In this document: piece by piece, positions 8,724 through 25,042 of the stretch
How the letters are laid out: each line of letters opens with the position of its first letter
How positions within the stretch are numbered: position 1 is the stretch's first letter
DNA from: Paenibacillus montaniterrae
Lineage (GTDB): Bacteria; Bacillota; Bacilli; Paenibacillales; Paenibacillaceae
Reading direction: 5' to 3'
Assembly (NCBI RefSeq): GCF_018403185.1
Contig: NZ_BOSE01000012.1
Coordinates: forward strand, 94,194 to 126,193
DNA: 32,000 nucleotides
Position numbers and translations under genes: made by a program
Notes under the pieces: generated by a model
What the model saw: only the letters and a program-made list of their open reading frames with translations
What the model was told of the DNA's origin: nothing
The model's database searches: none

Positions 8724-8761
8724 AGTAAGTAGAATACAAAATGAACGTTAGGAGATTTAAA

Positions 8762-9145
8762 ATGAGAATATCCAATACATTATTTAATGAGATCGTTGAT
8801 GACATTGAACAGTATATTCCGAAGCTTATTACAGCAAGCCATTCTATTGGCGACTTATTCTACGAACCATTAACGAATGAAGGTAGTCAATTCTTCTCAG
8901 ATTACATTACAGGTCTAAGTAACCTCATTCAAACGGTTATGATGACCTTAAAGGACGCTGCAGACCATGCTCCATCAATGATAGAACCAGTTACATATGC
9001 GTTGCAAGCGATACCTGAACAGGTTGCAGAGCTAGAAAAGGCTCTAGCACAGCAGCAGTTTGTGCATGTTGCAGATATATTAAAATATGAATTAGCAGAC
9101 CATTTGGATAAACTATTACAAGCACTAAAGGAGTCTCGCTCATAA
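8762..9145 (+). CDS. Hypothetical small helical protein (127 aa), translationally coupled to maf
   Basis: The ORF has RBS AGGAG 7 nt upstream of ATG 8762. Its stop overlaps the maf start (TAATG at 9143-9147). I recognised no family motif. Confidence 0.6.
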   Translation: MRISNTLFNEIVDDIEQYIPKLITASHSIGDLFYEPLTNEGSQFFSDYITGLSNLIQTVMMTLKDAADHAPSMIEPVTYALQAIPEQVAELEKALAQQQFVHVADILKYELADHLDKLLQALKESRS

Positions 9146-10989
9146 TGAATATGCAGCAGGATAATTTAGCTTATCTAAAGAAATATCATCCTCAAATTTA
9201 TAATGCTGTAAATCAAGCAACAAATAGCAATGTGCTAGAAAATTATGAATTGATTCAGAACCGTAATCAATCCTACAATATTTGTATAAAGAACTGGAAC
9301 GATAGCATGCTCTATAGCAAATACGACCCCGCGTACGAGGCACAACGCTGGTGTCAATCACTGGATTATATAGAGCAAAATGAAGACGATGTTATTCTAT
9401 TTGGTTTAGGCTTAACTTATCATTTATCAGCTTTAATTGAGCAATTTCCTAATCGAAGATTTATTATTATCGAGCCTGAAGTGGGTCTGTTTATGCAGAT
9501 GATCAAAATTGTAGACATTTCACAATTATTAAGTCATCCGAATATTAAGCATATTGGAGTAGGGAAAGAGGATTCAACTATAGAGCAGTTTTTAGAATTT
9601 ATTAAAAAATATTGCACGTTCCAGTATCGCTATGTTCGAATTCCTTTTTATGACAAGCTTTCATTAGAAACAGAAAAAGTATTTTTAGAGAAGCTTAAAA
9701 AGATCGATCTTGAAAAGAAAGCGGTGCAAGGCTTCCATAAAACATTTGGAAAAGTCATGTATCAAAATTCTTTGAGAAATATTCCAAAATTACTAAGTAC
9801 ACCTGTACTAAAAACACTGGAACAGCGTTTTCCGGGATCGACTGCGGTCATAATTGGCGGAGGACCTTCTTTGCAATACGACGTTAATCGCATTAAGGAG
9901 AATATTGATAACTGGCTTATCATAGCAGCAGGATCAAGTATACAGAGCTTGCGTCACTATGGCATTCAACCACATTTGATTGTTTCGATGGATCCGGGTG
10001 TATACAATACGAAAATATTTCGGGCATATGACTATGCAGACATTCCAATGCTAGTCATGCCTCAAATTCATCATGAAATTCTAACTATTCATGCTAAGAA
10101 CAATGTATATGCTTATTATAACAATGATCCAATGATTAATTATTTGATCCCTTACCAGGATCAAAATTATGTGCTGAAGCCTACATTCTCTGTAACTGGT
10201 ACAGCTATTCAAGCAGCCGTCTATATGGGGGCCAACCGAATAATCTTTACGGGACAGGACTTATCGTATCCGAATAAGCAACAATATGCAGCAGGTGCAG
10301 AACATGTTACTGAGGCTATGAAAAAAAATAAGGAAAAAGAGCTACAATACGAGGTCGAAAATGTGTATGGGAATTTGAATCCTACCACGTTCAGCATGCT
10401 GCAAACATTAAAAGATATCGAGCAGCTTATTGCAGAATTTACGTCGGTAGAGTTTATAAATGCTTCTAAATCGGGTGCCAAAATTGAAGGAACAACTTTT
10501 AAAAGTATAGAATTAATCACAACATCTGCTACATGTTATAATTTTAACATTCTAAATAGCCTTATAGAAGATCAGGCTGTTTTACATAAAATTGATCGTC
10601 ATTCGATTATAAAAAAAGTTGAACGTACAGTGAAATTCTCTTACATGTTATTAAAGGCTATATCCTTTAATCTAAGAAAATTCAATGAACTTAATAAAAT
10701 AGTTCATAAGGCTCCAAAACAAGGCAAGCTTTTGTTGCTTGAAATAGAAGAAAGCCTAGATCGACTCTTTAATAAAGAAGAATTTAAGGAGTTTATTGCG
10801 CATTGGTTTATAGTAGAGCTAAACATATGCGAACAACACATAATAGAAGCACATGGCGAGCAAAATGTTATTAAAAAAGCGGAGATCTATAACAGAAGCA
10901 TACCTGCATTATTGCAAACTATGAAAACATGGCTCCCAACTATTACCAGTGAGCAAGAGGAGCTTATAATTCAGTTAAAGAATAAGTAA
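9145..10989 (+). CDS. maf: Motility accessory factor (Maf, DUF115/MptE-like), a putative flagellin nonulosonic-acid transferase
   Basis: 614 aa. The central block STAVIIGGGPSLQYD...LIIAAGSSIQ...IVSMDPG...FTGQDLSY matches the conserved Maf/DUF115 core. It lies next to flagellin and the pse genes. Confidence 0.85.
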   Translation: MNMQQDNLAYLKKYHPQIYNAVNQATNSNVLENYELIQNRNQSYNICIKNWNDSMLYSKYDPAYEAQRWCQSLDYIEQNEDDVILFGLGLTYHLSALIEQFPNRRFIIIEPEVGLFMQMIKIVDISQLLSHPNIKHIGVGKEDSTIEQFLEFIKKYCTFQYRYVRIPFYDKLSLETEKVFLEKLKKIDLEKKAVQGFHKTFGKVMYQNSLRNIPKLLSTPVLKTLEQRFPGSTAVIIGGGPSLQYDVNRIKENIDNWLIIAAGSSIQSLRHYGIQPHLIVSMDPGVYNTKIFRAYDYADIPMLVMPQIHHEILTIHAKNNVYAYYNNDPMINYLIPYQDQNYVLKPTFSVTGTAIQAAVYMGANRIIFTGQDLSYPNKQQYAAGAEHVTEAMKKNKEKELQYEVENVYGNLNPTTFSMLQTLKDIEQLIAEFTSVEFINASKSGAKIEGTTFKSIELITTSATCYNFNILNSLIEDQAVLHKIDRHSIIKKVERTVKFSYMLLKAISFNLRKFNELNKIVHKAPKQGKLLLLEIEESLDRLFNKEEFKEFIAHWFIVELNICEQHIIEAHGEQNVIKKAEIYNRSIPALLQTMKTWLPTITSEQEELIIQLKNK

Positions 10990-11012
10990 TTCAAACTTTA
11001 TATTATGAATAA

Positions 11013-12002
<990 letters not shown>

Positions 12003-12021: not shown

Positions 12022-13182
12022 ATGCAATATTCTAGTTTAGTTACAGTTTCAGTAATTATTCCAATTCATAATGGTGCAGAATTTATAGAACAATGTTTAG
12101 AGTCAGTACTTAAACAGAAAGAAAATATCCACGAGATAATCGTTGTGAATGACGGCAGTACAGATGGAACAAGCGATATATTGAAACGTTATTCAGATCA
12201 AATCAAAATCGTCTCTTTTAATCAAAAAAGAGGAGTGTCGGTATCTAGAAATAATGGTGTTATTTTATCTCAGAGCGATTGGATTTTATTTTTAGATGCT
12301 GATGATATTTTAAGTGATGATTTTGTTAAGAAATATATTTTTACATTAAATAAAGAACCAAACGACACAATCTTAGTTTATTCTAAAGCAATTGAGATTA
12401 CTAAAGAAGGTAATATTACGAACATAATATATGAAGGATTTGACATGTTGAATGGGACTGCGTTTGGACATGAAATTGTAAGAAATAGAATTCTTCTTAC
12501 AGGTACTATGGTTAAAAGAGATTTATTTCTAAATGTAGGAGGGTTTAATGAGACGCTTACACACGGTGAAGATTGGGATTTATGGCTTAGATTGTCGAAA
12601 TATGGTGCTTTTAAATATGCTTCAACCACAGTTGTTTTTATCAGAAGACATGAGTCAAATTCTTCAGCAAAGCTAAATAGGATGCTTGAAGCTGAAAAAA
12701 CAATAATTAAACAGTATTCATTGCGTGAAATAAAATATAGTATCTCTAAACGAAAGCTTAGTGAATTAGATAATATATCAGACTATTTATTTTTGTTACT
12801 AAAAATAGAGGAATATAAGTTATGTAAAGATGAATTAAATGAATATTTAAACAATAGCCAACAATCAGATATTCTACTGTTTGTTGATGCCTTAATCCAT
12901 TGGAACGAACAAAATTGGATACAAGCAAAAGAGAGCTTATTTTTAGCAATTAGTTATAAAATTAAGGCAGAGTATCATAATAATCTTGGTGCTATCTTTC
13001 TAGTTGAAAAAGAATTTGATAAAGCAAAAACGCAATTTGAAGCAGCACTTAGTATTCATGCAAATTATTTAGATGCAGCATATAACTTAGATTTAGCCAA
13101 AAGTCAGACCTCTGATTTAAAGCAGATAAGAATTACTTCAAGACCCTTACGTAAGAATTTAACATCGTATTCATCATTCTGA
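12022..13182 (+). CDS. Family-2 glycosyltransferase with a C-terminal TPR-like domain
   Basis: The N-terminus VSVIIPIHNGAEFIEQCLESVLKQ...IIVVNDGSTDGT...LDADD is the GT2 (GT-A, DxD) signature. The C-terminus YHNNLGAIFLVEKEFDKAKTQFEAALSIHANYLDAAYNLDLA is TPR-like. Confidence 0.85.
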   Translation: MQYSSLVTVSVIIPIHNGAEFIEQCLESVLKQKENIHEIIVVNDGSTDGTSDILKRYSDQIKIVSFNQKRGVSVSRNNGVILSQSDWILFLDADDILSDDFVKKYIFTLNKEPNDTILVYSKAIEITKEGNITNIIYEGFDMLNGTAFGHEIVRNRILLTGTMVKRDLFLNVGGFNETLTHGEDWDLWLRLSKYGAFKYASTTVVFIRRHESNSSAKLNRMLEAEKTIIKQYSLREIKYSISKRKLSELDNISDYLFLLLKIEEYKLCKDELNEYLNNSQQSDILLFVDALIHWNEQNWIQAKESLFLAISYKIKAEYHNNLGAIFLVEKEFDKAKTQFEAALSIHANYLDAAYNLDLAKSQTSDLKQIRITSRPLRKNLTSYSSF

Positions 13183-13220
13183 CTTAAATTTTCAGTGAGA
13201 CTATTCATAAGAGGTGTAGT

Positions 13221-14462
13221 ATGAAAAAAGTACTTTTTATAACTTATTACTTTCCACCGTATACTAGTAGTGGTGTTTTTCGTCCCTTGAAGTTCGTTAA
13301 ATATTTGATGAGAGAAGGAAGTTGGGAACCAATTATCCTAACTCTTAATCAGGATTCTTTTAAAGACAGGCCAAGAGATTACACTTTAAGCAAAAATATA
13401 CCTGAAGAACTGAAAATTTATTATGCCAACTCGTTAGAACCCAACCAAGACTCTACTAATAATTATAAGGAAATTTATAGAGAAGCACATATACCCGATC
13501 ATGCATATGGATCATTCATGCATTTTGTTATAAAGGCCTTACAAATTATTAAGGAACAAGAGATTAACCTTATTTTTTGTACCATTCCTCCATACACAAT
13601 GGGGTTAATCGGAACAACAATTAAAGAAATTACAAATATTCCCATGATTGTTGATTATAGGGATGGCTGGGTTAATGGGAATATGATGAATAAGTTCAGA
13701 ACTGAGGAAGGCAAACATATTAACACATACTTAGAAAATAAGTTATTGCAAAATGCAGATGCTGCTATTTTTGTTAATAGAGAAGTAGCAGAGGTATCAT
13801 TAAAGCAATTCCCTAAGATAAAACAATTAGTTGCTCCAAACGGTTACGATCTAGAGGATTTTAATAATCTGCGTAAAGTGAATACTAAAAAATTTAAGAT
13901 AGGAAATAAAAAACAGATTGTTTGGTGTGGACATATATATAATGACTACGTGGATCATATATTAAAAATGGCTCAAGCTATTAACGTTTTGAATGAAGAC
14001 GGGCATGACCTTGAGTTTGTGATTGCAGGAACTTTACAAAGTGAAGATATCTTAGAAAGATTAGAATTTAATTATTACTCACATATTCGTTTTTTAGGTA
14101 ATATTTCATATGAGGACTCAATCTTGCTTACGAACGATGCTGATATAAATTTTGGAGTACACATTTTAGAATATTCAATTGGAAGTAGATTTTACAATTT
14201 AATCCCTACATTTAAACCGATTATTGCGTTTTACAATACTGAGAATAAATATATCCCTAGATTTTTTGAAAACTACCCATTAAAAGAATTATTTTCATTA
14301 GACGCAAGTGTTAGGGGAATAAGCAACGGAATTGTAAGGTTGATAAATTCAAATTATAGAATGAATGGAAATAAGGTTATTGACTCTTATAAGGAATATA
14401 GTAGAGAGAATAATGCCTATAAATTAATAGATTTATTCAATCAAATAAGTTTAAGTCAGTAA
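13221..14462 (+). CDS. Putative GT-B fold glycosyltransferase (GT4-like)
   Basis: The N-terminus MKKVLFITYYFPPYTSSGVFRPLKFVKYL and VDYRDGW resemble the Glyco_trans_4 N-domain. The C-terminal nucleotide-sugar domain is degenerate by eye. Confidence 0.6.
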   Translation: MKKVLFITYYFPPYTSSGVFRPLKFVKYLMREGSWEPIILTLNQDSFKDRPRDYTLSKNIPEELKIYYANSLEPNQDSTNNYKEIYREAHIPDHAYGSFMHFVIKALQIIKEQEINLIFCTIPPYTMGLIGTTIKEITNIPMIVDYRDGWVNGNMMNKFRTEEGKHINTYLENKLLQNADAAIFVNREVAEVSLKQFPKIKQLVAPNGYDLEDFNNLRKVNTKKFKIGNKKQIVWCGHIYNDYVDHILKMAQAINVLNEDGHDLEFVIAGTLQSEDILERLEFNYYSHIRFLGNISYEDSILLTNDADINFGVHILEYSIGSRFYNLIPTFKPIIAFYNTENKYIPRFFENYPLKELFSLDASVRGISNGIVRLINSNYRMNGNKVIDSYKEYSRENNAYKLIDLFNQISLSQ

Positions 14463-14499
14463 GTTTTAGGTGAATGTACATAGCAGAGGTGTGGGGATT

Positions 14500-15630
14500 T
14501 TGTATAAACATGTACACATTGTAATTGATCATCTGTATACCAAGCAACTCTATGACTTTATACAATCCAAGTTTAATGATCATTACTTTATAGTAGTAGA
14601 TTTGGAGTTGGATACAGGAAGCGCTTATTTTAGTAATGCTAGTCTGAATATACGGAAATGCACAAAATCTGAAATAAAATCGGCTTCTACTACAAGTGAG
14701 CTATATCATGAAATATCTGCTTTTAAAAACATATTTATTCATTATCTTTATAATTTTTACTGCGACTTTTTTGTGAATCTTCCATTTAACAAATCCAATT
14801 TATATTGGATAGTATGGGGCGCGGATTTGTATGATTACATTCCTTTTGAAATATACGATGATAATGTAAAGCGAATGTTTCCTCAAAGCGTAAACAAGCC
14901 AAAGTACAGCGAGTTATTTTTAAAAAATAGAGCTTTGCTAATTTCAAAATTATCAGGTATTTGTACTACATCTGTCTTTGATTATAATTTGATTAAACAA
15001 TTTTATGAAACACAAGCTCCTAGAATAGAATTAGGATACAACACAAGTATATATTTAAACGAAGCTTATTGTCTTTCAATGAAGGAAATAGAAGGGGCGA
15101 GCTGTATCAGAGTATTGGTTGGAAATTCAGGAGATATTTCTAATAATCATCAAACTATATTCGAGTATCTAGATAAACTATTACCCTCAGATTCAGAGGT
15201 TATTGTTCCTTTATCTTATGGGAACAGGGAACATATCGAAGAAATCAAAAGAATTGGAAAAATGATACTAAAAAATAGAATGATTCCTCTTGAACAATTT
15301 ATGATATTTGAAGAGTATGTGCAATTAATAAGTAAAGTTAATTGCATAGTTATGAACCATAGAAGGCAACAAGCTGTGGGGAATGTTTTAATAGGATTAT
15401 ATTTAGGGAAAGCCGTATTTCTATCTGAAACATCACCAGTTTATTATGATCTCATAGATAAGGGCTTTATTATTTACAAGGCAGGGATGCTTAATAATAT
15501 TTCCTTAGAACAGTTTAGTGAGATCTGCAGCTTAAAATATGACCAAAACAAAGAAAGATTGAAAACTTATTTAGGAGCGGAGTATGTAGAACAACAATAC
15601 TCTAATTTTTTTCTTGATTTTAGTTCATAA
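14500..15630 (+). CDS. WecF-like 4-alpha-L-fucosyltransferase family protein (GT56, TDP-Fuc4NAc transferase family)
   Basis: YWIVWGADLYDY, RVLVGNSGDISNNHQTIFEYL and VIVPLSYGN match E. coli WecF blocks as I recall them (FWHIWGADLYEL, ILVGNSGDRSNEHIAAL, VVVPMGYPP). The start is uncertain: TTG 14500 lies 8 nt after GAGGTG, and the ORF track uses GTG 14470. Confidence 0.72.
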   Translation: MYKHVHIVIDHLYTKQLYDFIQSKFNDHYFIVVDLELDTGSAYFSNASLNIRKCTKSEIKSASTTSELYHEISAFKNIFIHYLYNFYCDFFVNLPFNKSNLYWIVWGADLYDYIPFEIYDDNVKRMFPQSVNKPKYSELFLKNRALLISKLSGICTTSVFDYNLIKQFYETQAPRIELGYNTSIYLNEAYCLSMKEIEGASCIRVLVGNSGDISNNHQTIFEYLDKLLPSDSEVIVPLSYGNREHIEEIKRIGKMILKNRMIPLEQFMIFEEYVQLISKVNCIVMNHRRQQAVGNVLIGLYLGKAVFLSETSPVYYDLIDKGFIIYKAGMLNNISLEQFSEICSLKYDQNKERLKTYLGAEYVEQQYSNFFLDFSS

Positions 15631-15667
15631 TTGCTCGCAAAATTACAAAACTTTATTTCGCGAGCAA
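15631..15667 (+). other. Inverted repeat (hairpin) directly after the GT56 stop codon
   Basis: TTGCTCGC (15631-15638) pairs with GCGAGCAA (15660-15667) as perfect 8-bp arms, extendable by AAA/TTT. No T-run follows. Confidence 0.4.
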
Positions 15668-15769
15668 TAGTCAATGTCTATATTAGAGAGTAAGTTTAGT
15701 AAGTTTAATTATTATTTCAGTGAAAATATAGAGTAAGTTCATTTTGATACAGGAAGGGAAAATCAACCA

Positions 15770-16645
15770 ATGAAAGGCGTTATTTTAGCCGCTGGTACTG
15801 GTTCAAGATTGTTTCCATTAACTAAATCAATATCCAAACATCTATTACCGATTTATGACAAGCCTATGGTGTATTACCCTCTGTCAGTACTTATGTTGTC
15901 TGAAATTAGAGAGATATGTATTATTACCAATGAAGAGGATAGATATTTATATGAAGCGTTGCTAGGAGATGGAAACCAATTTGGTATTTCAATAACTTAC
16001 TTATCACAAAAGAGCCCTAATGGAATAGCAGAAGCATTTTTAATAGCAGAAGAATTTATTGGACAAGAGACAGTATGTTTAATTTTAGGAGATAATGTTT
16101 TCTTTGGTCAAGGCTTCACTCCGGTCTTAAGAAAAGCAGTAAAATTGAAAGAGGGAGCAATTGTTTTCGGTTATCCGGTTCATGATCCTGAAAGATTTGG
16201 TATCGTACAATTTGATGAATGTAAAAATGCTATCTTGTTAGAGGAAAAGCCAAAAAATCCTTCATCTCAATATGCTGTGACAGGCTTGTATTTTTACGAT
16301 AGCTCTGTAGTTAATATAGCTAAAACTTTAAAAGCCTCTGAGCGAGGTGAATTAGAGATTACAGATGTAAATAAAGCATATTTAGAAAGAAAAAAGTTAA
16401 AGGTTGAAATACTTGGTCGAGGATTTACATGGTTAGATGCAGGAACCTTTAGTAGCTTGTTGGAAGCTAGTCAATTTGTAGAAACAATCGAGAAGCGGCA
16501 GGGTTATAAGATTGCATGTTTGGAAGAAATTGCATTCAACCAAGGTTGGATTACACAGGAAGAAGTTTTGAGTACAGCTAGACGATATAAAAATAATGAC
16601 TACGGAAAATATTTATTTAAGTTAGTAGGTGATATACTTGATTAA
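15770..16645 (+). CDS. rmlA: Glucose-1-phosphate thymidylyltransferase RmlA
   Basis: MKGVILAAGTGSRLFPLTKSISKHLLPIYDKPMVYYPLSVLM and YLSQKSPNGIAEAF, GDNVFFG, LEITDVN are canonical RmlA/RfbA motifs. The protein is 291 aa. Confidence 0.93.
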   Translation: MKGVILAAGTGSRLFPLTKSISKHLLPIYDKPMVYYPLSVLMLSEIREICIITNEEDRYLYEALLGDGNQFGISITYLSQKSPNGIAEAFLIAEEFIGQETVCLILGDNVFFGQGFTPVLRKAVKLKEGAIVFGYPVHDPERFGIVQFDECKNAILLEEKPKNPSSQYAVTGLYFYDSSVVNIAKTLKASERGELEITDVNKAYLERKKLKVEILGRGFTWLDAGTFSSLLEASQFVETIEKRQGYKIACLEEIAFNQGWITQEEVLSTARRYKNNDYGKYLFKLVGDILD

Positions 16646-17783
16646 ATTTAACATTGCTCCAGTAGCGGGACAAGAAATAGAATTCATTCAAGATGCAATA
16701 AATTCCAGACATTTATGCGGAGATGGAAAATATACAGAGCTATGCAGTAAATGGTTAGAGAAAACAACCGGAACACCCAAAGTGTTACTAACAACAAGCT
16801 GTACACATGCGTTGGAAATGGCTGCACTCTTATTTGATATAAAACATGGTGATGAAGTAATTATGCCGTCATATACGTTTGTATCGACTGCTAATGCTTT
16901 TGTACTGCGTGGTGCTAAAATTATATTTGTCGATATACGTCCTGATACTATGAATATTGATGAAACAAAAATAGAGGCGGCTATCACTAACAGAACTAAA
17001 GTTATAGTTCCTGTCCATTACGCTGGTGTTGCATGTGAGATGGACACAATAATGAATATTGCTGAGCGATACAATTTATATGTGGTAGAAGATGCTGCGC
17101 AAGGTATTATGTCTACATATAAAGGAAGAATGTTAGGTAGTATTGGGCATCTAGGTACCTTTAGCTTTCATGAAACGAAAAATCTTGTTTGTGGGGAAGG
17201 AGGTGCGCTATTAGTAAACGATAGAAGACTTATAGAGAGAGCAGAAATTATTAGGGAAAAGGGAACAAATCGTTCACAGTTTATTAGTGGACGGGTTGAT
17301 AAATATACGTGGAGAGATATAGGGTCATCATATCTAATGTCCGAACTTACAGCTGCATATTTATATTCACAACTAATTAATGCACAGTATATTACTAAAA
17401 AGAGATTGAAATTATGGAGTATATATTACCAATACTTATATAATTTTATTGATATTTACGATATAGAGCTTCCTTGTATACCAAATACGGTAGAACATAA
17501 TGGTCACCTATTTTTCATTAAACTAAAGAATAAGAAAACAAGAGATAACTTAATTGAATATTTGAAAGATCGAGGTATACAAGCAACGTTCCATTACATT
17601 CCTCTTCATACAACAGAAACTGGAAAGAAATACGGGGAGTTTCATGCCTCTGATAATATGACTTGTGAGCAAAGTGATAAATTATTAAGACTACCGATGT
17701 TTTTTTCTTTAGAAGAGGAAACAGTAATACAAATCTGCAATGTAGTAGTAGATTACCTTAAGAAGGCGAGGGAGAAAATATGA
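16638..17783 (+). CDS. dTDP-4-amino-4,6-dideoxyhexose transaminase, WecE/RffA-like (PLP-dependent, DegT family)
   Basis: Long blocks match E. coli WecE as I recall it: GDEVIMPSYTFVSTANAFVLRGAKIIFVDIRPDTMNIDE, VIVPVHYAGVACEMDTIM, VVEDAAQGIMSTYKGR, FSFHETKN, ERAEIIREKGTNRSQF and VDKYTWRDIGSSYLMS. The start is TTG 16638 (giving MIKFNIAPV) or GTG 16629, and it overlaps the rmlA stop. Confidence 0.9.
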   Translation: MIKFNIAPVAGQEIEFIQDAINSRHLCGDGKYTELCSKWLEKTTGTPKVLLTTSCTHALEMAALLFDIKHGDEVIMPSYTFVSTANAFVLRGAKIIFVDIRPDTMNIDETKIEAAITNRTKVIVPVHYAGVACEMDTIMNIAERYNLYVVEDAAQGIMSTYKGRMLGSIGHLGTFSFHETKNLVCGEGGALLVNDRRLIERAEIIREKGTNRSQFISGRVDKYTWRDIGSSYLMSELTAAYLYSQLINAQYITKKRLKLWSIYYQYLYNFIDIYDIELPCIPNTVEHNGHLFFIKLKNKKTRDNLIEYLKDRGIQATFHYIPLHTTETGKKYGEFHASDNMTCEQSDKLLRLPMFFSLEEETVIQICNVVVDYLKKAREKI

Positions 17784-18979
17784 AAGGACAGAAAATTATG
17801 ATCGTAGCTGGAGGTGAGTGGCAGGTACCTATTATAAAAAAGGCTAAACAACTGGGGCTTCGTGTAATGAATACCAATTTGTATCAAGATTCTCCAGGCT
17901 TCCAATATGCTGATGAAAGTGCAGTTGCTGATGTCCTGGACTATAAAACCAATTTGCAGATAGCGGAGGCTTATAAACCTAATGCGATTATTACTGATCA
18001 GAGTGATATTGCGGTAAAAACAGTAGCACGGTTATGTGAAAGACTGAAACTAAAGGGAATTACTGAAAAGATTGCTGATCTATTTACGAATAAGTATCTT
18101 ATGAGAATGTTTTGCAAGGAACATGGATTTGATATACCAAGATTTGAACTATGCTGCAGTTTGCAGGAAGCTGAGACAGCATCCGAAAAAATCGGTTATC
18201 CGCTTGTAATGAAGCCTTTAAGAAATCAATCTAGCAGAGGTGTGTTTGTAGTTTATAATAAGGCCGAACTATTCCAAAAGTTCAATTTAACCCTTCAATT
18301 TTCTGAATCTGGTGAAGTGTTAGTTGAGGAATTTATTGACGGTAAAGAATTTACTGTAGAAGGATTCATGTTCAGTGATCGCCACATATCATTGGCAGTA
18401 TCAGCAAAGGATTATTTAAAAGATAATATTGCGATAGCAACAAGATTGGTATATAGTCATGAAAATTTTGATTTTAACTACGATTGTTTGAAAATTCAAA
18501 ATAATAATTTAGTAGAAACAATGAAACTCCCTTTTGGTATTACACATGCTGAGTACAAATACAAAGAGGGGAGGTTCTACTTGATTGAAATTGCAGCTCG
18601 AGGAGGAGGTACTAAAATTTCTTCTGATATCGTTCCACTAGTTTCGGGTGTTGACGTAAATGAACTACTTATAAGAAGTGCCTTGGGAGAGGAAATAAAA
18701 TCAGGGGATATTTCCCTAATGCAAAAATCAGTTGCGATTTTAGATTTTTTTATACTACCAACAGGAAGAGTTAAGAGTATCATAGGTGCGGAAGAGATAA
18801 CAATGATTCCAGGAGTAGTTGATTTTAAATTAAATTTTAAAGCGGGAGATACAATAAGTACACCTAATGATGATCGTTCTAGAGTAGGTTACTATATTGC
18901 ACATGCATCCTATAAGGAGAGTTTACTTTCCTTGGCTGAATATATTAAATTGAAGTTGAAGGTAATTTACGATGAATAA
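17780..18979 (+). CDS. ATP-grasp domain protein (carboxylate-amine ligase family), copy 1
   Basis: YPLVMKPLRNQSSRGVFVV, LVEEFIDGKEFTVEG and YLIEIAARGGG are ATP-grasp motifs. The ATGA start overlaps the transaminase stop. Confidence 0.8.
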   Translation: MKGQKIMIVAGGEWQVPIIKKAKQLGLRVMNTNLYQDSPGFQYADESAVADVLDYKTNLQIAEAYKPNAIITDQSDIAVKTVARLCERLKLKGITEKIADLFTNKYLMRMFCKEHGFDIPRFELCCSLQEAETASEKIGYPLVMKPLRNQSSRGVFVVYNKAELFQKFNLTLQFSESGEVLVEEFIDGKEFTVEGFMFSDRHISLAVSAKDYLKDNIAIATRLVYSHENFDFNYDCLKIQNNNLVETMKLPFGITHAEYKYKEGRFYLIEIAARGGGTKISSDIVPLVSGVDVNELLIRSALGEEIKSGDISLMQKSVAILDFFILPTGRVKSIIGAEEITMIPGVVDFKLNFKAGDTISTPNDDRSRVGYYIAHASYKESLLSLAEYIKLKLKVIYDE

Positions 18980-19736
18980 ACTGAACATATTTGATTCGCA
19001 TTTGCATTTTAATATGAATACGGCAGATCCTTATAAGGATCTAGTAACACAAATAACTTCTAGTCAAATGAAAGGCTGCTTGTTAATTTTAAATTATGAA
19101 AATGAACGGAATTATTTTATGAATAATATACAACTTTTACAAGCTCTTGATATTCAACTCGAAGTTGCTCTTATGCTTGATTTTCAAAACATAGATTACG
19201 AAATTATTAAACAGTGTTACTTGAAGAACATTGAGTTTTCAATTAAAATCCACCCTCGTCTCTCTAATATTACTTTAGGTGACTTTAATAAAATCCTCCT
19301 CGCACTTCAGAAAATTAATTACAAACATATCATAGTTGATGGATTTTATTATGGGCCTAATTTAAGGTCACATATAAATATTGAGCTATTAATTTTTTTG
19401 TCAAAATACTTACCCAGTAAAAGAATTCTCTTTGCTCATTCTGGAGGTCATAAGATATTAGAAACAATGCTATATACTAGGAATTTAGACAATATATATT
19501 ATGACTTGTCATTCACACAAAATTATTTTAAAAATACTTCGATCAGCCTTGATATTATTAATTTTATTAAATTTAACTACGGTAAAATTTTATTCGGTTC
19601 GGATTACCCAGAATTTTCGATAGAAGACAGTAAAAAACAGTTGTTAATTTATATGAATAAAGCAGGGTTGAGTTTCGAGGCTCAGAATAAAATTTTAATT
19701 GAAAATAGTTTGAGTTTTTTTCGAGATGGAGGATAA
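18972..19736 (+). CDS. Amidohydrolase-2 superfamily (TIM-barrel metal-dependent hydrolase, hydratase or decarboxylase family) protein
   Basis: The N-terminal IFDSHLHF (HxH), KIHPRLS, FAHSGG and GSDYPE follow the ordered ligand pattern of amidohydrolase-2 proteins. The protein is 254 aa. Confidence 0.65.
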   Translation: MNKLNIFDSHLHFNMNTADPYKDLVTQITSSQMKGCLLILNYENERNYFMNNIQLLQALDIQLEVALMLDFQNIDYEIIKQCYLKNIEFSIKIHPRLSNITLGDFNKILLALQKINYKHIIVDGFYYGPNLRSHINIELLIFLSKYLPSKRILFAHSGGHKILETMLYTRNLDNIYYDLSFTQNYFKNTSISLDIINFIKFNYGKILFGSDYPEFSIEDSKKQLLIYMNKAGLSFEAQNKILIENSLSFFRDGG

Positions 19737-19740
19737 GTAT

Positions 19741-20373
19741 ATGCAAAAAAAAATTATAGAGTATATAAAGAAGAATAGGGTTTCTTCGACGGAAATAGCC
19801 GACTGTCTAGGTAAACAAGGAGTAGTGTCAGGTGTTAAAGCAATAAATAGAGGGAAATTTAAAGTAGGGAATGTTTTTTGGGTCTATGCATACGGGGGAA
19901 GTAATTGGGATATGCATGAACAAATTCAGGGGGTAAAAGAAGGAGATGTAGTTTTTATTGAAGTGTTTGATTGTGAGGACAAAGCAATATTTGGGGATCT
20001 AGTAGCCAAGTATTTGCTACTTTATAGACAAGCAAGCGCAATTGTTGTAAATGGTAATGTACGTGATGTTCCAAGACTAATTAAGGAAAACTGGCCGATT
20101 TGGTGTGTTGGATATAATCCTGTTGGGTGCCATAATGAAAAATTAGATTTTGAGCTAGATAAAAAAATAATAGACAATAAAAGACAAATTTATAGTGGCG
20201 CTATAGCAGTTTGTGATGATACTGGCGTAGTAATAATTCCAAAAGAGTGTATAAATGATGATTTCATGATTAGGATGGAAGAAATCGAAGAACAAGAAGA
20301 TATTTGGTTTGACTGTATTGATAGGAAAAAAATGAGTACTTTTGAGACTGTCTGTTTGAAAAAGTATTTATAA
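19741..20373 (+). CDS. RraA-like / class II aldolase-like (HMG/CHA aldolase, oxaloacetate decarboxylase family) protein
   Basis: STEIADCLGKQGV, GDVVFIEV, AIFGDLVAKYLLLYRQASAIVVNGNVRDVPRL and PIWCVGYNPVG fit the RraA/demethylmenaquinone-methyltransferase-like fold pattern. The start is ATG 19741, 8 nt after GGAGG. The ORF-track start at 19726 overlaps the upstream gene. Confidence 0.68.
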   Translation: MQKKIIEYIKKNRVSSTEIADCLGKQGVVSGVKAINRGKFKVGNVFWVYAYGGSNWDMHEQIQGVKEGDVVFIEVFDCEDKAIFGDLVAKYLLLYRQASAIVVNGNVRDVPRLIKENWPIWCVGYNPVGCHNEKLDFELDKKIIDNKRQIYSGAIAVCDDTGVVIIPKECINDDFMIRMEEIEEQEDIWFDCIDRKKMSTFETVCLKKYL

Positions 20374-20396
20374 TCCTGATTGGAAGTGGTGCCAAG

Positions 20397-21086
20397 ATGA
20401 AAATTTCGAATAAAGACCTAAGAAGTATAATCGAGCGTTACGAAGATAGATATAGTAAATATGGCTATTCTCCAATTACATTAGGTTGGGATAAAGGCAA
20501 ACAATTTATTCGTTTTGATATTTTATTAGATTACTTTGACTTGGATAACCGTACTTTTCTTGATATAGGATGCGGGTTTGGAGACCTTTGTTTTTATTTA
20601 AATCAAAAAGTTTCTGCCTTTCAGTATCTTGGTGTCGATATTGTTCCTAAGTTAATAGAGATTGCCAATGAGCGTTATTCTAATAATACAACTATGTTTC
20701 TGGAAGGGGATTTCTTAAACATGGAATTTATGGAAAACTCCTTTGACTATGTTATTGGTTCAGGTATTTTTAATTTTAAACTGCAAGATGTTGATAACTA
20801 CGAATATGTTTATTCTATTATGAAAGAAAGTTTTTATGTAGCTAGACACGGAGTTGCTTTTAATTTTTTATCCGATCAGGTAGATTTTCATAAAGAAATA
20901 ACTTTTCATTCAAATCCACTAAAGATTTTGGAGTTTGCTTATAGTTTATCAAAAAATGTAGTACTTCGGAATGATTACATGCCATTTGAATTTACAATAT
21001 ATATATTTAAAGATGATTCTTTCCATAAAGCTGATACTTTGTTTAATAAATATAAAGAAGAAAAAGGGATAAGAAATGTTTTCTAA
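20397..21086 (+). CDS. Class I SAM-dependent methyltransferase
   Basis: Motif I FLDIGCGFGDL is followed by YLGVDIVP and FDYVIGSGIF. The protein is 229 aa. Confidence 0.8.
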   Translation: MKISNKDLRSIIERYEDRYSKYGYSPITLGWDKGKQFIRFDILLDYFDLDNRTFLDIGCGFGDLCFYLNQKVSAFQYLGVDIVPKLIEIANERYSNNTTMFLEGDFLNMEFMENSFDYVIGSGIFNFKLQDVDNYEYVYSIMKESFYVARHGVAFNFLSDQVDFHKEITFHSNPLKILEFAYSLSKNVVLRNDYMPFEFTIYIFKDDSFHKADTLFNKYKEEKGIRNVF

Positions 21087-22236
21087 AACCATAGAAAGAT
21101 TAAATCGCCCTGCCTCTATGAGAATCGCATCTTTGGCAAAAAAATTAAAAGCTGGTGGACACGACATTCTTGATTTAACGTTGGGGCAGCCTGACTTACC
21201 AGTACACTATAATATTATTGAATCGGTTCACGAATGCTTGCTTAGTGGAAAGACAGGTTATACAGAATCTCAAGGTATATTAGAACTAAGAGAACAAATC
21301 AGTGTATATGAAAGTGAAAAATGGGGATATCCAATTTCTGCTGATCAAGTATTAGTATCCCCTGGGGGAAAGCAAGCTATTTATTATGCGCTGAGAACAT
21401 TAGTTAATCCATTAGACGAAGTTATTATAATTGAGCCTTGTTGGCTGAGTTATAAAGAGTTAATTGAGATGGTTGGTGGTAAAGCGGTTATACTTAATAC
21501 GGACCCTAATAAAAATTTTGTTGTTTCTATTCATGAGATATTAGCGAAGATCACCTCTAAAACTAAAGCTATTATCTTAAATGTACCAAATAATCCAACA
21601 GGGTCCATTTATCCATCAGATACTATTAAAATGTTAATCCGATATTCCGCAGCGCATCAAATTTTCTTAATATTTGATAATATATATGATGAAATTATTT
21701 TTGATGATGAGAAGATAGAATATTCTTTGGAACCACTACAGTGTGAAAAGCTTATAATAGTAAACGGATTTTCTAAAAGCTTTTCCATGACAGGCTTTAG
21801 AGTAGGCTATGTCATTAGCCATGAGATTATAATGGAGCAAATGATAAAGGTTCATGAGCAGTTAGCTACATGCACATCAATTGTTTCACAATATGCAGCT
21901 TTAGCTGCATTGAGAATTGAAAAATCTTATTTAGAAAAACGAAAAGAGGTATTTGAAAGAAGGAGAGATTTTGTTGTAAACAGATGTAGGGAATTAAATA
22001 TAGATCTAATAGTTCCTCAAGGTGGGATTTATTGTTTGATCGATACACGTAGTATTAACTCAAGTTCTGTTGTAGCAGCGGAAAAAATATTGCAACATGC
22101 ACTAGTTGCTGTAATACCTGGAGTTGTATATGGTATCTCTAGTGAAGGTTATGTTCGAATCTCGTTAGTGGGAGATGAAGCAATATTAGAGGAAGCACTG
22201 AAGCGAATAAGCGATTTGATGGAATTGACTTTATAA
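21076..22236 (+). CDS. PLP-dependent aminotransferase, class I/II (aspartate-aminotransferase fold)
   Basis: SPGGKQA, NVPNNPTG and the PLP-lysine motif NGFSKSFSMTGFRVGY are present, with a C-terminal VRISL. The protein is 386 aa. Confidence 0.88.
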   Translation: MFSKTIERLNRPASMRIASLAKKLKAGGHDILDLTLGQPDLPVHYNIIESVHECLLSGKTGYTESQGILELREQISVYESEKWGYPISADQVLVSPGGKQAIYYALRTLVNPLDEVIIIEPCWLSYKELIEMVGGKAVILNTDPNKNFVVSIHEILAKITSKTKAIILNVPNNPTGSIYPSDTIKMLIRYSAAHQIFLIFDNIYDEIIFDDEKIEYSLEPLQCEKLIIVNGFSKSFSMTGFRVGYVISHEIIMEQMIKVHEQLATCTSIVSQYAALAALRIEKSYLEKRKEVFERRRDFVVNRCRELNIDLIVPQGGIYCLIDTRSINSSSVVAAEKILQHALVAVIPGVVYGISSEGYVRISLVGDEAILEEALKRISDLMELTL

Positions 22237-22360: not shown

Positions 22361-23389
22361 GTGTATATATTAGTTACAGGAGGAGCTGGCTTTATTGGTT
22401 CAAATTTTATTGAGTATTATCTACAACAACATCCTGATGTGAAAATAGTAAATTTGGATTTACTCACCTATGCAGCTCATTTGCAGAATCTAGAGAGCTG
22501 TAATCAGAGTAACAAATACAGTTTTGTACATGGAGACATATGTGACAGGGATCTCGTTAAACATTTGTTTGAACATTATAATTTTGAAGGTGTAATTCAT
22601 TTTGCAGCGGAATCACACGTAGATAATTCTATTAAGAATCCCAGTTCTTTTGTTACTACAAATATCAACGGAACTTTTACATTGTTAAGTGTTGCTCAAC
22701 AGCATTGGATGAAAGCTCCATTTAAGTATAAAAGAAATTATGAACATTGTAGATTTCTTCACATTTCGACTGATGAGGTATACGGGACTTTAGGTAAAAC
22801 GGGGTACTTCACAGAACAATCGCCATATGCACCTAATAGTCCTTATTCTGCTAGTAAGGCAGCCTCAGATTTTTTAGTACGGAGTTACTACCATACTTAT
22901 GGTTTGAATGTGGTCACGACAAATTGCTCAAACAATTATGGCCCAAGACAGCATGATGAAAAGTTTATTCCTACTATTATTCGTAAAGCTATTTCTTTTG
23001 AGCCAATTCCTATATATGGAACTGGACTTAATATAAGGGATTGGCTGTATGTTAAGGAGCATTGTCGTGCTATTGATCTTGTATTTAACAATGGTAAGGT
23101 AGGAGAGACCTATTTAATAGGTGGAAGTAATGAGCATTCTAACATGAATATTGCACTATTGGTATGCTCTATTCTTGATGAATTATTGGTAGACGAACTT
23201 CAACATAAAGAAGTAACTTCCTTTACGGAACTAATAGAATTTGTAAATGATCGTGAAGGTCACGATTTTAGGTACGCTATAGATGCTAGTAAAATAAAAA
23301 AAGAATTAGGTTGGTTTCCACAAGGTAATTTTGAAGTGTTGTTAAGGGAAACAATATTATATTATTTAGATCGATATCAATTGAAGTGA
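22361..23389 (+). CDS. rmlB: dTDP-glucose 4,6-dehydratase RmlB
   Basis: ILVTGGAGFIGSNF, NLDLLTYAA, HFAAESHVDNSI, STDEVYG, SPYSASKAASD and NCSNNYGPRQHDEKFIP are canonical RmlB motifs. The GTG start lies 7 nt after AAGGGGG. Confidence 0.93.
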   Translation: MYILVTGGAGFIGSNFIEYYLQQHPDVKIVNLDLLTYAAHLQNLESCNQSNKYSFVHGDICDRDLVKHLFEHYNFEGVIHFAAESHVDNSIKNPSSFVTTNINGTFTLLSVAQQHWMKAPFKYKRNYEHCRFLHISTDEVYGTLGKTGYFTEQSPYAPNSPYSASKAASDFLVRSYYHTYGLNVVTTNCSNNYGPRQHDEKFIPTIIRKAISFEPIPIYGTGLNIRDWLYVKEHCRAIDLVFNNGKVGETYLIGGSNEHSNMNIALLVCSILDELLVDELQHKEVTSFTELIEFVNDREGHDFRYAIDASKIKKELGWFPQGNFEVLLRETILYYLDRYQLK

Positions 23390-24350: not shown

Positions 24351-25042
24351 GAAAAGTGATTGTTTTTGATTTGGATGATACACTATATGATGAATATGAA
24401 TATGTGAAAAGTGGGTTCCAAGCAGTTAGTGAATACCTATGGAGAGAATTTGGATTTGATACAAATGAAACTTATAACCGGATGTGGAACAGTTTAAAGT
24501 GTGAGGGTAGAGGAACCATATTTGATGGTTTGCTGAAATACTTTGGAATAACTCAACGAAAATATGTTAAAAAATGTTTATCAGTTTATCGGTTACATCA
24601 ACCAGAAATAATTTTACCTAAAGAGTCTAATGAAATACTGAGACAGTTGCACAAAAAAGTACCGCTATATTTAGTCACAGATGGGAATAAGGTTGTTCAG
24701 GCAAATAAGATTTATGCTTTAAGGTTAGAGATGTACATGAAAAAGTGCTATATTACTTACCGGTATGGTCATGCTAAAAGTAAACCATCCCCGTATTGTT
24801 TCCAGCTTATAGCAAAAAGCGAAGGGGTATCGACTGCAGATATTGTTTATATAGGGGATAATCCTAAAAAAGATTTTGTTGGAATCAAGCCGCTCGGCTT
24901 TAGAACAATTAGGGTGATGACAGGACAGCATTCTCAAGTAGAGATGCCTATACAATACGAGGCAGAATTAAGAATTAATCATATTTCTGATTTGATTCCT
25001 GCTTTAAAGCAAATATGGTGCAATTTTGTAATCGAGGGATAA
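24347..25042 (+). CDS. HAD-superfamily hydrolase or phosphatase
   Basis: Motif I is VIVFDLDDTLYDE (DxDxT), motif II is LVTDGN, and motif IV is YIGDNPKKDF. The ATGA start overlaps the upstream stop. Confidence 0.82.
   Translation: MRKVIVFDLDDTLYDEYEYVKSGFQAVSEYLWREFGFDTNETYNRMWNSLKCEGRGTIFDGLLKYFGITQRKYVKKCLSVYRLHQPEIILPKESNEILRQLHKKVPLYLVTDGNKVVQANKIYALRLEMYMKKCYITYRYGHAKSKPSPYCFQLIAKSEGVSTADIVYIGDNPKKDFVGIKPLGFRTIRVMTGQHSQVEMPIQYEAELRINHISDLIPALKQIWCNFVIEG

Follow-up and report, generated by a model that had tools for sequence, protein, structure and literature searches.

The only characterised member of glycosyltransferase family GT56 is WecF, and its substrate is lipid II (PMC7439462). 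Flagellin glycosyltransferases bind flagellin through TPR domains (PMC7591256; preprint 10.1101/2023.12.03.569772). It has been shown that P. syringae VioT transfers only the N-acylated viosamine dTDP-sugar to the flagellin glycan (PMC3927599). The type B flagellin of C. difficile bears Fuc3N with a peptide as its acyl group (PMC5207245). On C. botulinum flagellin, a legionaminic acid has N-methyl-glutamate as its N-acyl group (Twine 2008, as cited in PMC13317340); amino-acid acylation of nonulosonic acids is therefore known. An earlier in silico analysis predicted that a flagellar island in a Gram-positive species, Clostridium butyricum CFSA3987/3989, specifies production of dTDP-Fuc4N (PMC13317340).

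In this study, a 32-kb stretch of DNA (the window) from a Paenibacillaceae bacterium was analysed; the ORFs considered, and all features given below, are on the + strand. The segment encoding GT56 and WecE proteins is part of a low-GC flagellin glycosylation island. We propose, with a probability of about 0.6, that it specifies a cytoplasmic flagellin O-glycosylation pathway in which the GT56 enzyme acts on the flagellin glycan without a lipid carrier. A flagellin-directed, cytoplasmic GT56 would, if true, represent a role so far undescribed for this family.

Gene content of the flagellin glycosylation island

Pfam scans identified FlgN, FlgK, FlgL, FliW, CsrA, FlaG, FliD, FliS and two flagellins, followed by Maf. 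The flagellins (6841-7671, Flagellin_N/Flagellin_C E = 1e-46/2.5e-31; 7839-8651, E = 3.6e-46/4.5e-32) are the presumed protein acceptors. The island also has a parallel branch for nonulosonic acid, which begins at 8741-12002 with a candidate GlfM (8741-9145), named only from its size and position beside Maf (preprint 10.1101/2023.12.03.569772), Maf (9145-10989; MptE-like and Maf_flag10_N domains), and PseB (11019-12002; TIGR03589, 525 bits). The remaining pseudaminic-acid genes (23418-31090) encode a PylC-like ATP-grasp protein, a HAD hydrolase, a CMP-sugar cytidylyltransferase, PseG (TIGR03590, 273 bits), PseI, PseC (TIGR03588, 505 bits), a DUF4910 protein, and a formyltransferase; the NeuB domain scored 303 bits. 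The cytidylyltransferase (CTP_transf_3, 96.8 bits vs 22.6) is PseF-like by position. The formyltransferase (30293-31090; Formyl_trans_N, 38.9 bits) is a weak match to PseJ (PDB 6CI2), and PseH was not found in the pseudaminic-acid branch of the window. The GT56 gene sits within one co-directional block, with flagellin/Maf on one side and the Pse genes on the other.

The GT56 gene (14470/14500-15630) encodes a distant WecF homologue. Its product matched PF07429 (Glyco_transf_56) with an E value of 5.8e-20 and 72.1 bits against a cut-off of 25, over profile positions 15-322 of 358. Identity to E. coli K-12 WecF was 23% over 229 aa (pairwise E = 6e-14), and the two proteins have in common the motifs W-x-x-WGADLY, LVGNSGD-x-SN-x-H, and RQQ-x-G. 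All residues that are at least 95% conserved among 81 family members and present in E. coli WecF are kept. The six WecF equivalog models gave at most 170 bits vs cut-offs of at least 457. The AlphaFold model has a GT-B fold (pLDDT 88.5), a TM scan predicted no TM segment in the protein, and both a TPR domain and the PF22674 N-terminal domain are absent from it. A TTG at 14500, preceded by AGAGGTG, is a plausible start codon. The closest relative among 5.8 billion proteins was only 35-37% identical; in a neighbour-joining tree the protein was placed outside the flagellar clade, on a long branch with about 30% identity to everything. Just 3' of the stop codon, in the 140-nt gap upstream of rmlA, a hairpin (15630-15668; -15.2 kcal/mol, z = -2.46 vs shuffles) was found; its function is uncertain because it has no clear U-tract, and it is a possible sub-operon boundary.

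Genes for a dTDP-sugar donor were identified downstream. RmlA, a glucose-1-phosphate thymidylyltransferase (15770-16645), scored 442.5 bits with TIGR01207 (cut-off 360.65), and RmlB, a dTDP-glucose 4,6-dehydratase (22361-23389), scored 444.6 bits with TIGR01181 (cut-off 365.1). The dTDP-4-keto-6-deoxyglucose 4-aminotransferase gene (16629/16638-17783) encodes a WecE orthologue with 62% identity to the E. coli K-12 enzyme over 376 aa (E = 1e-180) and a match to PDB 4PIW/4ZAH at E = 4e-156; alignment with E. coli WecE showed that the HETKN lysine motif is kept. The equivalog NF008687 scored 618 bits (cut-off 375) and TIGR02379 621 bits (cut-off 434.85); the latter is labelled as a gluco-transaminase subfamily and the former as galacto. 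With a TTG start at 16638 (AGGTGA upstream), the product begins MIKFN, parallel to MIPFN in E. coli. Its product is predicted to be dTDP-Fuc4N, the galacto configuration being assigned from orthology only.

The start of an ATP-grasp ligase gene of the L-amino-acid-ligase type (17780-18979; LAL_C2 and ATP-grasp_4 domains) overlaps the WecE stop codon. PDB matches of its product include the L-amino acid ligase BL00235 and BacD. It is followed by genes assigned by Pfam to an amidohydrolase_2 (18972-19736), an RraA-like aldolase (19726-20373), a SAM methyltransferase (20397-21086), and a class I aminotransferase (21076-22236). An ATP-grasp homologue adjoins a WecE-like gene in seven other loci from several phyla (L012, L021, L026, L046, L063, L081, and L082), all of them without Pse genes; in one, from an Acidobacteriota MAG (L012), an aminotransferase-ATP-grasp fusion is followed in a row by amidohydrolase_2, methyltransferase, WecE, and GT56. 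No GNAT or hexapeptide acyltransferase was detected in Pfam scans of 34 + strand ORFs from the window.

A sequence-only reading of this DNA had assigned the 14500 ORF to GT56 and the transaminase to the WecE type, and had placed rmlA and rmlB in a flagellin island; the profile searches bear out all three assignments. It had also noted the lack of a WecD-like acetyltransferase, in agreement with the Pfam scans, and had suggested a differently acylated donor, an idea supported by the coupling of the ATP-grasp gene to WecE, the recurrence of this adjacency, and the aminotransferase fusion. The two candidate N-acylating enzymes, the ATP-grasp ligase (17780-18979) and the formyltransferase (30293-31090), were not mentioned in it.

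Fusions, membrane proteins, and the acceptor side of GT56

Two further glycosyltransferase genes lie directly upstream of GT56. One encodes a GT2 enzyme (12022-13182; Glycos_transf_2, E = 5e-32) with a C-terminal TPR (TPR_1/TPR_2, residues 316-348), predicted to be a flagellin-binding, initiating O-glycosyltransferase. The other encodes a GT4-like (GT-B) enzyme (13221-14462; Glyco_transf_4, E = 3.8e-6, just below the gathering score), predicted to extend the flagellin glycan. In Geosporobacter ferrireducens a single 1860-aa ORF beside flagellin has the architecture GT2-TPR-GT4-TPR-GT56, with genes for a formyltransferase, WecE, RmlB, RmlA, and FliD downstream. The window genes at 12022-15630 are collinear with this fusion, whose residues 1-92, 918-1281, and 1491-1808 correspond to the GT2-TPR (its residues 7-99), GT4-like (27% identity over 385 columns, E = 4e-20), and GT56 proteins, respectively. 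Other GT56 fusions in flagellar loci of Bacillota are GT2-TPR-GT56 in Clostridium sp. (1155 aa) and GT2-TPR-GT56-sulfotransferase in Halanaerobium; in a Cohnella flagellar locus a TPR-GT56 protein without a GT2 domain was found.

No + strand ORF of at least 100 aa in the 32-kb window had more than one predicted TM segment; in the positive control, E. coli WecA, WzxE, and WzyE gave 11, 10, and 10. We surveyed the 80 GTDB loci most similar to the query, a biased set in which only five contain flagellin. ORFs with at least six TM segments (Wzx/Wzy-like) occurred in none of the five loci with flagellin within 10 kb vs 58 of the 75 others (Fisher p = 0.001). Loci free of membrane proteins supplied the best matches of the window GT56: all of the first five and 11 of the first 14 hits (Mann-Whitney p = 4e-4). 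Membrane-docking GT-B enzymes typically have basic N-domains. The mean net charge of the N-terminal (acceptor-side) domain was +9.6 in Wzx/Wzy-type loci and -0.2 in flagellar loci (p = 2e-4); the values for E. coli WecF and the window GT56 were +10 and -3. In almost all of the surveyed loci, WecE shared 48-67% identity with its E. coli counterpart.

The absence of lipid-linked machinery, also remarked upon in the sequence-only reading, thus holds for the window, and its suggestion of a soluble, protein-linked acceptor gains support from the TPR/GT2 fusions, the five flagellin-linked loci free of Wzx/Wzy, and the lost basic charge. Its description of the pair as 'ECA-type' was correct as to the WecE and GT56 families and misleading as a label: the GT56-WecE-RmlAB module is widespread over many phyla, and in Gram-positive bacteria it is also found in polysaccharide loci that encode Wzx/Wzy-like proteins.

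Proposed pathway and alternatives

In the proposed pathway, RmlA and RmlB would form dTDP-4-keto-6-deoxyglucose, which the WecE orthologue would aminate to dTDP-4-amino-4,6-dideoxygalactose (dTDP-Fuc4N). The ligase encoded next to WecE probably N-acylates dTDP-Fuc4N to give the donor: rather than being acetylated by WecD, the 4-amino group is predicted to receive a carboxylate or amino acid in amide linkage from the ATP-grasp enzyme, whose gene is translationally coupled to WecE. The group carried over would probably be amino-acid-like, and the neighbouring aldolase/aminotransferase/methyltransferase/amidohydrolase cassette (18972-22236) is predicted, by a putative chemistry, to make it. On the flagellin, GT2-TPR would start the O-glycan, its TPR binding flagellin, and the GT4-like enzyme would extend it. 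The soluble GT-B enzyme GT56 is then predicted to add the N-acylated 4-amino-4,6-dideoxyhexose ahead of flagellin export, with no role for an undecaprenyl carrier, flippase, or polymerase. We infer the acceptor, the configuration of the sugar, the nature of its acyl group, and the sequence of the transfers.

It is highly improbable that GT56 uses an undecaprenyl-PP-linked oligosaccharide, as in ECA or O-antigen synthesis, with the flagellar position being incidental. The carrier, flippase, and polymerase/ligase genes, for instance those of a cell-wall polysaccharide or S-layer glycan, would then lie outside the window; carrier genes may indeed be located there, or beyond 10 kb in the other loci. 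Multi-TM Wzx/Wzy-like proteins beside GT56 in 58 of 80 loci, including those of the Bacillota Sporosarcina, Virgibacillus, Oceanobacillus, and Clostridium sartagoforme, are in line with such a function, as is the lipid II substrate of WecF. However, no multi-TM ORF was detected in the window, the gene sits in the flagellin/Maf-Pse block, flagellar-locus homologues are covalently fused to TPR-GT2 modules, and the N-domain is acidic, unlike that of polysaccharide-locus members. A flagellin target reached in another way than by capping a GT2/GT4-built glycan is unlikely. GT56 could attach the sugar directly to Ser/Thr, and the Cohnella protein shows that a flagellin-binding TPR can have GT56 as its only catalytic partner; FlmQ of Burkholderia cenocepacia, an enzyme cited in PMC4462625, reportedly links N-acylated Qui4N directly to flagellin. 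It could also act on Maf-installed pseudaminic acid, Pse and Maf genes being present in the same island. Against either route, the window GT56 has no TPR, the order of the genes and the Geosporobacter fusion point to an assembly line of three steps, and WecF and its relatives in polysaccharide loci elongate glycans and do not initiate them.

A donor other than aminoacyl-Fuc4N is doubtful, although several observations fit one. Fuc4N might be used as the free amine or N-formylated; the formyltransferase (30293-31090) could be the N-acylating enzyme, as in Geosporobacter, where such a gene lies between the GT56 fusion and WecE, and the C. butyricum Fuc4N island has one as well. The ATP-grasp/aldolase/aminotransferase/methyltransferase cassette might act in the pseudaminic-acid branch instead, which would agree with the amino-acid acylation known for nonulosonic acids. 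Against this stand the start/stop overlap of ATP-grasp and WecE, their adjacency in seven loci without Pse genes, and the L012 locus, where the entire cassette is linked with WecE and GT56. The PylC-like ATP-grasp protein is a better candidate for Pse modification, because its gene adjoins the PseF-like gene with HAD and the order ATP-grasp-HAD-PseF-like-PseI is conserved in two other loci (L001 and L006); the resemblance of the formyltransferase to PseJ, weak as it is, and the absence of PseH also argue against a formylated Fuc4N donor. For the gluco epimer (viosamine) speaks the label of TIGR02379; the galacto equivalog was passed, and identity to E. coli WecE is 62%.

Comparison with known systems

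E. coli WecF (RffT; TDP-Fuc4NAc:lipid II Fuc4NAc transferase of ECA synthesis, CAZy GT56) and the window GT56 belong to the same Pfam family, have a predicted GT-B fold and the invariants H, WxxWGxDxY, GNS...N.H, P..Y, and RQQ..G, and are paired genomically with RmlA, RmlB, and WecE as the source of a dTDP-4-amino-4,6-dideoxyhexose donor. At 23% identity the window protein scores well short of the cut-off of each of the six WecF equivalogs. Unlike WecF, it has no WecA, WzxE, WzyE, WzzE, or WecD nearby, its acceptor-side domain is acidic (-3) rather than strongly basic (+10), and it is encoded in a flagellar island, with relatives fused to flagellin-binding TPR modules. The window WecE resembles E. 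coli WecE (RffA, PDB 4PIW/4ZAH) over its full length, with the PLP-lysine motif kept and the equivalog passed; its product configuration is predicted, and its downstream partner is an ATP-grasp ligase, whereas that of the E. coli enzyme is the GNAT acetyltransferase WecD.

Like the proposed pathway, the P. syringae VioA/VioB/VioT island and Burkholderia cenocepacia FlmQ place an N-acylated 4-amino-4,6-dideoxyhexose on flagellin. The viosamine island differs in its gluco configuration and in acyl groups from fatty-acid-type synthesis; VioT has 1173 aa and is homologous to P. aeruginosa OrfN. The C. difficile type B system, as far as excerpts of its reports describe it (PMC5207245, PMC5207246), is a Gram-positive, cytoplasmic Ser/Thr flagellin O-glycan that ends in an aminodideoxyhexose made by the RmlA/RmlB dTDP route, with an amide-linked, amino-acid-derived group on the sugar amino, as proposed here. 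It differs in that the sugar is Fuc3N, formed by an FdtB-like enzyme, and the cap is taurine-Ala-Gly; among the locus genes described in those excerpts, no GT56 or WecE homologue is named. The C. butyricum CFSA3987/3989 island, known from prediction only, has RfbB and RffA (WecE) in a flagellar hypervariable region with a GT2-TPR flagellin glycosyltransferase, and other N-acylating enzymes in place of an acetyltransferase, like the window; no GT56 was reported, and acylation would fall to a formyltransferase or a Fem-type transferase. Caulobacter FlmG (PMC7591256) and Shewanella Maf-1 (preprint 10.1101/2023.12.03.569772) differ in that they transfer nonulosonic acids by means of unrelated catalytic domains, but in both the TPR binds flagellin and delivers the catalytic domain, as in the GT2-TPR-GT56 fusions.

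Genetic context of the GT56 gene

All substantial ORFs in the window lie on the + strand. The first 8.7 kb encode FlgN, FlgK (72-76% identical to proteins of Paenibacillus and Candidatus Pristimantibacillus, which places the host in the Paenibacillaceae), FlgL, FliW, CsrA, FlaG, FliD, FliS, a weak FliT-like ORF and two flagellins. Between about 9.1 and 25 kb the G+C content is 29-36%, while both the flagellar genes and the distal pseudaminic acid (Pse) genes lie at 40-48%. This low-G+C stretch encodes, in order, Maf, PseB, a GT2 with TPR repeats (12022-13182), a GT4-like protein (13221-14462), the GT56 ORF (14500-15630), RmlA (15770-16645), a WecE-like transaminase (16638-17783), an ATP-grasp enzyme of the L-amino-acid-ligase type (17780-18979), a four-gene cassette (18972-22236) of amidohydrolase_2, RraA-like aldolase, SAM methyltransferase and class I aminotransferase, RmlB (22361-23389), a PylC-like ATP-grasp protein and a HAD hydrolase. 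The higher-G+C genes that follow encode a PseF-like CMP-sugar cytidylyltransferase, PseG, PseI, PseC, a DUF4910 protein and a formyltransferase. Horizontal transfer may explain the block from Maf to the HAD hydrolase, GT56 and WecE included, with insertion into a Pse cluster that was already there. The presence of flagellar late genes, two flagellins, Maf, GT2-TPR and nucleotide-sugar genes in one co-directional block marks the segment as a predicted cytoplasmic flagellin O-glycosylation island.

The island ends at about 31.1 kb, 5' of a cold-shock gene with a cspA thermoregulator. The thermoregulator (31318-31730; RF01766, 84.9 bits), the cold-shock protein gene itself (31463-31660) and a ribokinase-like ORF beginning near 31806 are outside the island. 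An Rfam scan returned the thermoregulator alone and nothing inside the island, and predicted promoters and terminators between 8.6 and 26 kb were no more frequent than in shuffled sequence. A 134-aa ORF without a Pfam family (8741-9145) stops at the exact point where maf begins. In size and position it fits a candidate GlfM, a small helical adaptor needed by Maf-2-type enzymes for flagellin binding (preprint 10.1101/2023.12.03.569772).

The sequence-only reading had described this locus as devoid of lipid-linked machinery and of a WecD-like acetyltransferase, and both statements hold for the 32 kb. WecA, WzxE, WzyE and WzzE were not found in the 32-kb window, and no + strand ORF in it has more than one predicted transmembrane (TM) segment in a hydropathy scan that gave 11, 10 and 10 segments for E. 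coli WecA, WzxE and WzyE. Pfam scans of the window ORFs revealed no GNAT or hexapeptide acyltransferase of the WecD type.

Identity of the GT56 protein and its WecE partner

An HMM search places the 14500 ORF in GT56, as had been proposed: it matches PF07429 (Glyco_transf_56) at 72.1 bits (gathering score 25, E 5.8e-20) over profile positions 15-322 of 358. The near-invariant residues of 81 family members that E. coli WecF also has are all kept (H6, H81, W103, W106, G107, D109, Y111, G208-N209-S210, N215, H217, P237, Y240, Y273, R289-Q290-Q291 and G294), and the WecF signature blocks first noticed are shared as well. The AlphaFold model (mean pLDDT 88.5, pTM 0.87) has a predicted GT-B fold with two Rossmann domains. 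Its top Foldseek matches (BshA, MshA, sucrose-phosphate synthase, WaaG, PglA; TM-score 0.6-0.69) are GT-B enzymes. A GT56 structure for direct comparison did not emerge from the PDB, where a sequence search yielded no significant match, and none of the Foldseek matches is described as WecF. Identity to E. coli K-12 WecF is 23%. All six NCBIfam WecF equivalog cut-offs were missed widely, the best score being 170 bits against a cut-off of 457 (NF002756), with 71.6 against 525 for NF052570 (ECA_fuco_WecF). The closest relative in a collection of 5.8 billion proteins is 35-37% identical. The protein is classified here as belonging to GT56 without being a WecF orthologue, because the profile match, invariant residues and GT-B model agree but the equivalog cut-offs fail and the closest relative is so distant. 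Several of its named database matches carry the label [quoted passage not shown]. A stable hairpin (15630-15668, z = -2.5) is located immediately 3' of the GT56 stop codon, within the 140-nt gap 5' of rmlA, and may be a boundary between two sub-operons.

The transaminase is much closer to its E. coli counterpart, in line with the resemblance first noticed: it is 62% identical to K-12 WecE over its full length (376 aa), scores 618 bits against a cut-off of 375 for the WecE equivalog NF008687, and matches PDB 4PIW with E 4e-156. By orthology, its product would have the galacto and not the gluco configuration. The identities of RmlA and RmlB in the window were confirmed, and the TTG starts at 14500 (GT56) and 16638 (WecE) are both preceded by good ribosome-binding sites. 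Because the GT56, WecE, RmlA/RmlB and start assignments and the TM and acyltransferase scans all agree, the observation behind the sequence-only reading was correct in every testable respect.

Two classes of GT56 loci and the predicted acceptor

One genome per GTDB species was scanned for GT56 relatives and the best 80 loci were retained; the source genome is absent from the representatives surveyed. A WecE orthologue (at least 45% identity) was found near the GT56 gene in 53 of these 80 loci, at a median distance of 1.7 kb, and RmlA and RmlB are usually close as well. Since these loci span many phyla, the GT56-WecE pair is a widespread module and not an enterobacterial speciality, and the description of the pair as "ECA-type" (enterobacterial common antigen, ECA) is not specifically appropriate. 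Among Bacillota, GT56 genes occur in both polysaccharide-type and flagellar loci. The polysaccharide-type class (58 of the best 80 loci, many of them from Bacillota) has a stand-alone GT56 protein of about 350 aa beside Wzx/Wzy-like proteins with 6-14 TM segments. Flagellin is encoded within 10 kb of GT56 in five of the best 80 loci (Geosporobacter, Halanaerobium, Cohnella, a Clostridium and a Bacillota MAG), none of which has Wzx/Wzy-like membrane proteins (Fisher p = 0.001). The N-terminal acceptor-side domain also differs in net charge, which averages +9.6 in polysaccharide-type loci versus -0.2 in flagellar loci (p = 2e-4); it is -3 in the window protein versus +10 in E. coli WecF. GT-B enzymes with lipid-linked acceptors usually dock on the membrane through a basic N-domain. 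By ranked similarity, the best matches of the window protein belong to the membrane-protein-free class. When 81 GT56 domains were placed in a neighbour-joining tree, a flagellar, TM-free clade was recovered, with the window protein elsewhere on a long branch; the tree was not relied on, and ranked similarity was used in its stead.

Four of the five flagellar loci encode the GT56 domain within a larger TPR-repeat polypeptide: GT2-TPR-GT4-TPR-GT56 in Geosporobacter ferrireducens (1860 aa, ORF confirmed on a complete chromosome), GT2-TPR-GT56 in the Clostridium (1155 aa), TPR-GT56 in Cohnella and GT2-TPR-GT56-sulfotransferase in Halanaerobium saccharolyticum (locus L040, 7673-11866), where the C-terminal sulfotransferase hints at a sulfated flagellin glycan. 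The consecutive GT2-TPR, GT4-like and GT56 genes of the window are collinear with residues 1-92, 918-1281 and 1491-1808 of the Geosporobacter fusion. Flagellin glycosyltransferases bind flagellin through their TPR domains (PMC7591256; preprint 10.1101/2023.12.03.569772), and in published work the clostridial ones are recognised by the criterion of GT2 plus TPR (PMC13317340). Given this criterion and the collinear fusions, GT56 would be tied to a flagellin-bound assembly line. The proposal that the enzyme acts on a protein-linked, soluble acceptor is thus supported by comparative evidence (TPR fusions, membrane-protein-free loci and N-domain charge), which argues for a carrier-free, flagellin-directed GT56 in the window.

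In a Clostridium sporogenes island (L001, 10001-20045; GCA_011012595.1) an N-terminal domain of about 100 aa, PF22674 (C2185-like_N), is present in five different tailoring enzymes: GT56, two methyltransferases, a Gtf3-like glycosyltransferase and an asparagine-synthase-like protein, in which it is listed last. It has the look of a common module for targeting or nucleotide binding and is absent from the window GT56.

The donor sugar and the pseudaminic acid branch

Without WecD, two enzymes of the window are candidates for N-acylation of the Fuc4N donor: the ATP-grasp ligase and the formyltransferase (30293-31090) that closes the island. Overlapping the WecE stop codon, the ATP-grasp gene encodes a protein that resembles L-amino-acid ligases. 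Seven other loci (from Clostridium, Anoxynatronum, Cetobacterium, Alkalibacterium, Thermotogota and Acidobacteriota) have a homologue directly adjoining a WecE-like gene. In the Acidobacteriota MAG (locus L012, 4728-14584) a class I aminotransferase and an L-amino-acid-ligase ATP-grasp are fused (797 aa) and are followed by amidohydrolase_2, methyltransferase, WecE and a multidomain GT56 protein, an arrangement that matches the window cassette. From this we infer that an amino-acid-like acid is made by the cassette and would be amide-linked by it to dTDP-Fuc4N; more speculatively, pyruvate aldol chemistry by the RraA-type aldolase, together with the aminotransferase, could yield a glutamate-like compound. 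The L012 GT56 protein (1533 aa) combines GT56, GT47-like, FkbM methyltransferase, GT1-like and methyltransferase domains; within 10 kb there are no membrane proteins, and no flagellin is nearby.

A less likely alternative is formylation of Fuc4N, suggested by Geosporobacter, in which a formyltransferase gene lies between the GT56 fusion and WecE. The similarity of the window enzyme to that protein is marginal (24% identity over 129 aa), too low to equate it with a dTDP-Fuc4N formyltransferase. The best PDB match of the window enzyme is ArnA, and it is weakly similar to PseJ. The window also encodes a Pse pathway (PseB, PseC, PseG, PseI and the PseF-like cytidylyltransferase, with distal genes at 25767-28938) in which the acetyltransferase PseH was not found. 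Because the formyltransferase gene sits among Pse genes, with a weak PseJ match and no PseH, its more likely product is N-formylated pseudaminic acid. A DUF4910/DUF2172/HTH_47 protein is encoded between PseC and the formyltransferase (28951-30276). The PylC-like ATP-grasp, HAD hydrolase and PseF-like trio of the window (23418-25770) recurs in L001 (1243-3886) and in another GT56 locus, L006 (2966-5400). In clostridial islands this second ATP-grasp and the HAD hydrolase accompany the PseF-like gene and PseI, and the second ATP-grasp probably modifies the nonulosonic acid. By analogy with Leg5GluNMe7Ac of C. botulinum, the trio suggests amino-acid or similar acylation of that sugar.

A more novel and less certain reading, with a probability of about 0.3, is that GT56 is a broad family and not an "ECA family", with one class that docks on membranes and extends lipid-linked glycans, and a carrier-free, flagellin-directed Bacillota clade delivered by TPR domains, fused or in trans. 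In the window the enzyme would cap the flagellin glycan with Fuc4N, amide-linked by the ATP-grasp ligase to a non-proteinogenic methylated amino-diacid made on site by the RraA-type pyruvate aldolase, class I aminotransferase, methyltransferase and amidohydrolase. The earlier interpretation, a carrier-free GT56 with a non-acetylated or differently acylated donor, gains support from the comparative evidence, but it did not account for GT56 in ordinary Gram-positive polysaccharide loci and overlooked the ATP-grasp ligase, the likely acylating enzyme.

If this is true, the flagellum would carry a new "aminoacyl-amido sugar", made by a cassette common to distant phyla such as Acidobacteriota, and Fuc4N derivatives would join the set of flagellar sugars. 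A soluble, protein-glycan-directed clade, if real, would widen the known range of GT56 and correct the automatic lipid II transferase annotation of its homologues; fusions and the charge switch offer simple sequence rules to separate the two classes. The window GT56 would also be a tractable tool with which to put unusual N-acyl-aminodideoxyhexoses on proteins. To our knowledge, the single characterised activity of GT56 is that of WecF on lipid II.

A literature search, of incomplete coverage, found nothing relevant linking WecF, GT56 or N-acetylfucosaminyltransferase with flagella. Flagellin of Pseudomonas syringae carries an N-acylated 4-amino-4,6-dideoxyhexose, and its transferase VioT requires an N-acylated donor (PMC3927599). 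VioT was considered as a WecF homologue and dropped: it is described as a large (1173-aa) homologue of P. aeruginosa OrfN (PMC3927599), and therefore gives no evidence for GT56 acting on flagellin. C. difficile type B flagellin has a terminal Fuc3N that carries a small peptide as its acyl group (PMC5207245). In a 2026 survey, RfbB and RffA were the basis for predicting dTDP-Fuc4N in a flagellar island of C. butyricum; no GT56 is listed for that island, and Fuc4N was previously unreported in flagellar glycans according to the same work (PMC13317340). In ECA synthesis WecF uses lipid II as the acceptor (PMC7439462); the window GT56 shares the family, whereas the carrier machinery and WecD that define that pathway have no counterpart in the window. 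The glycosyltransferase family and the kind of flagellin glycosylation island are thus known, whereas the acceptor class would be new, and probably the donor too.
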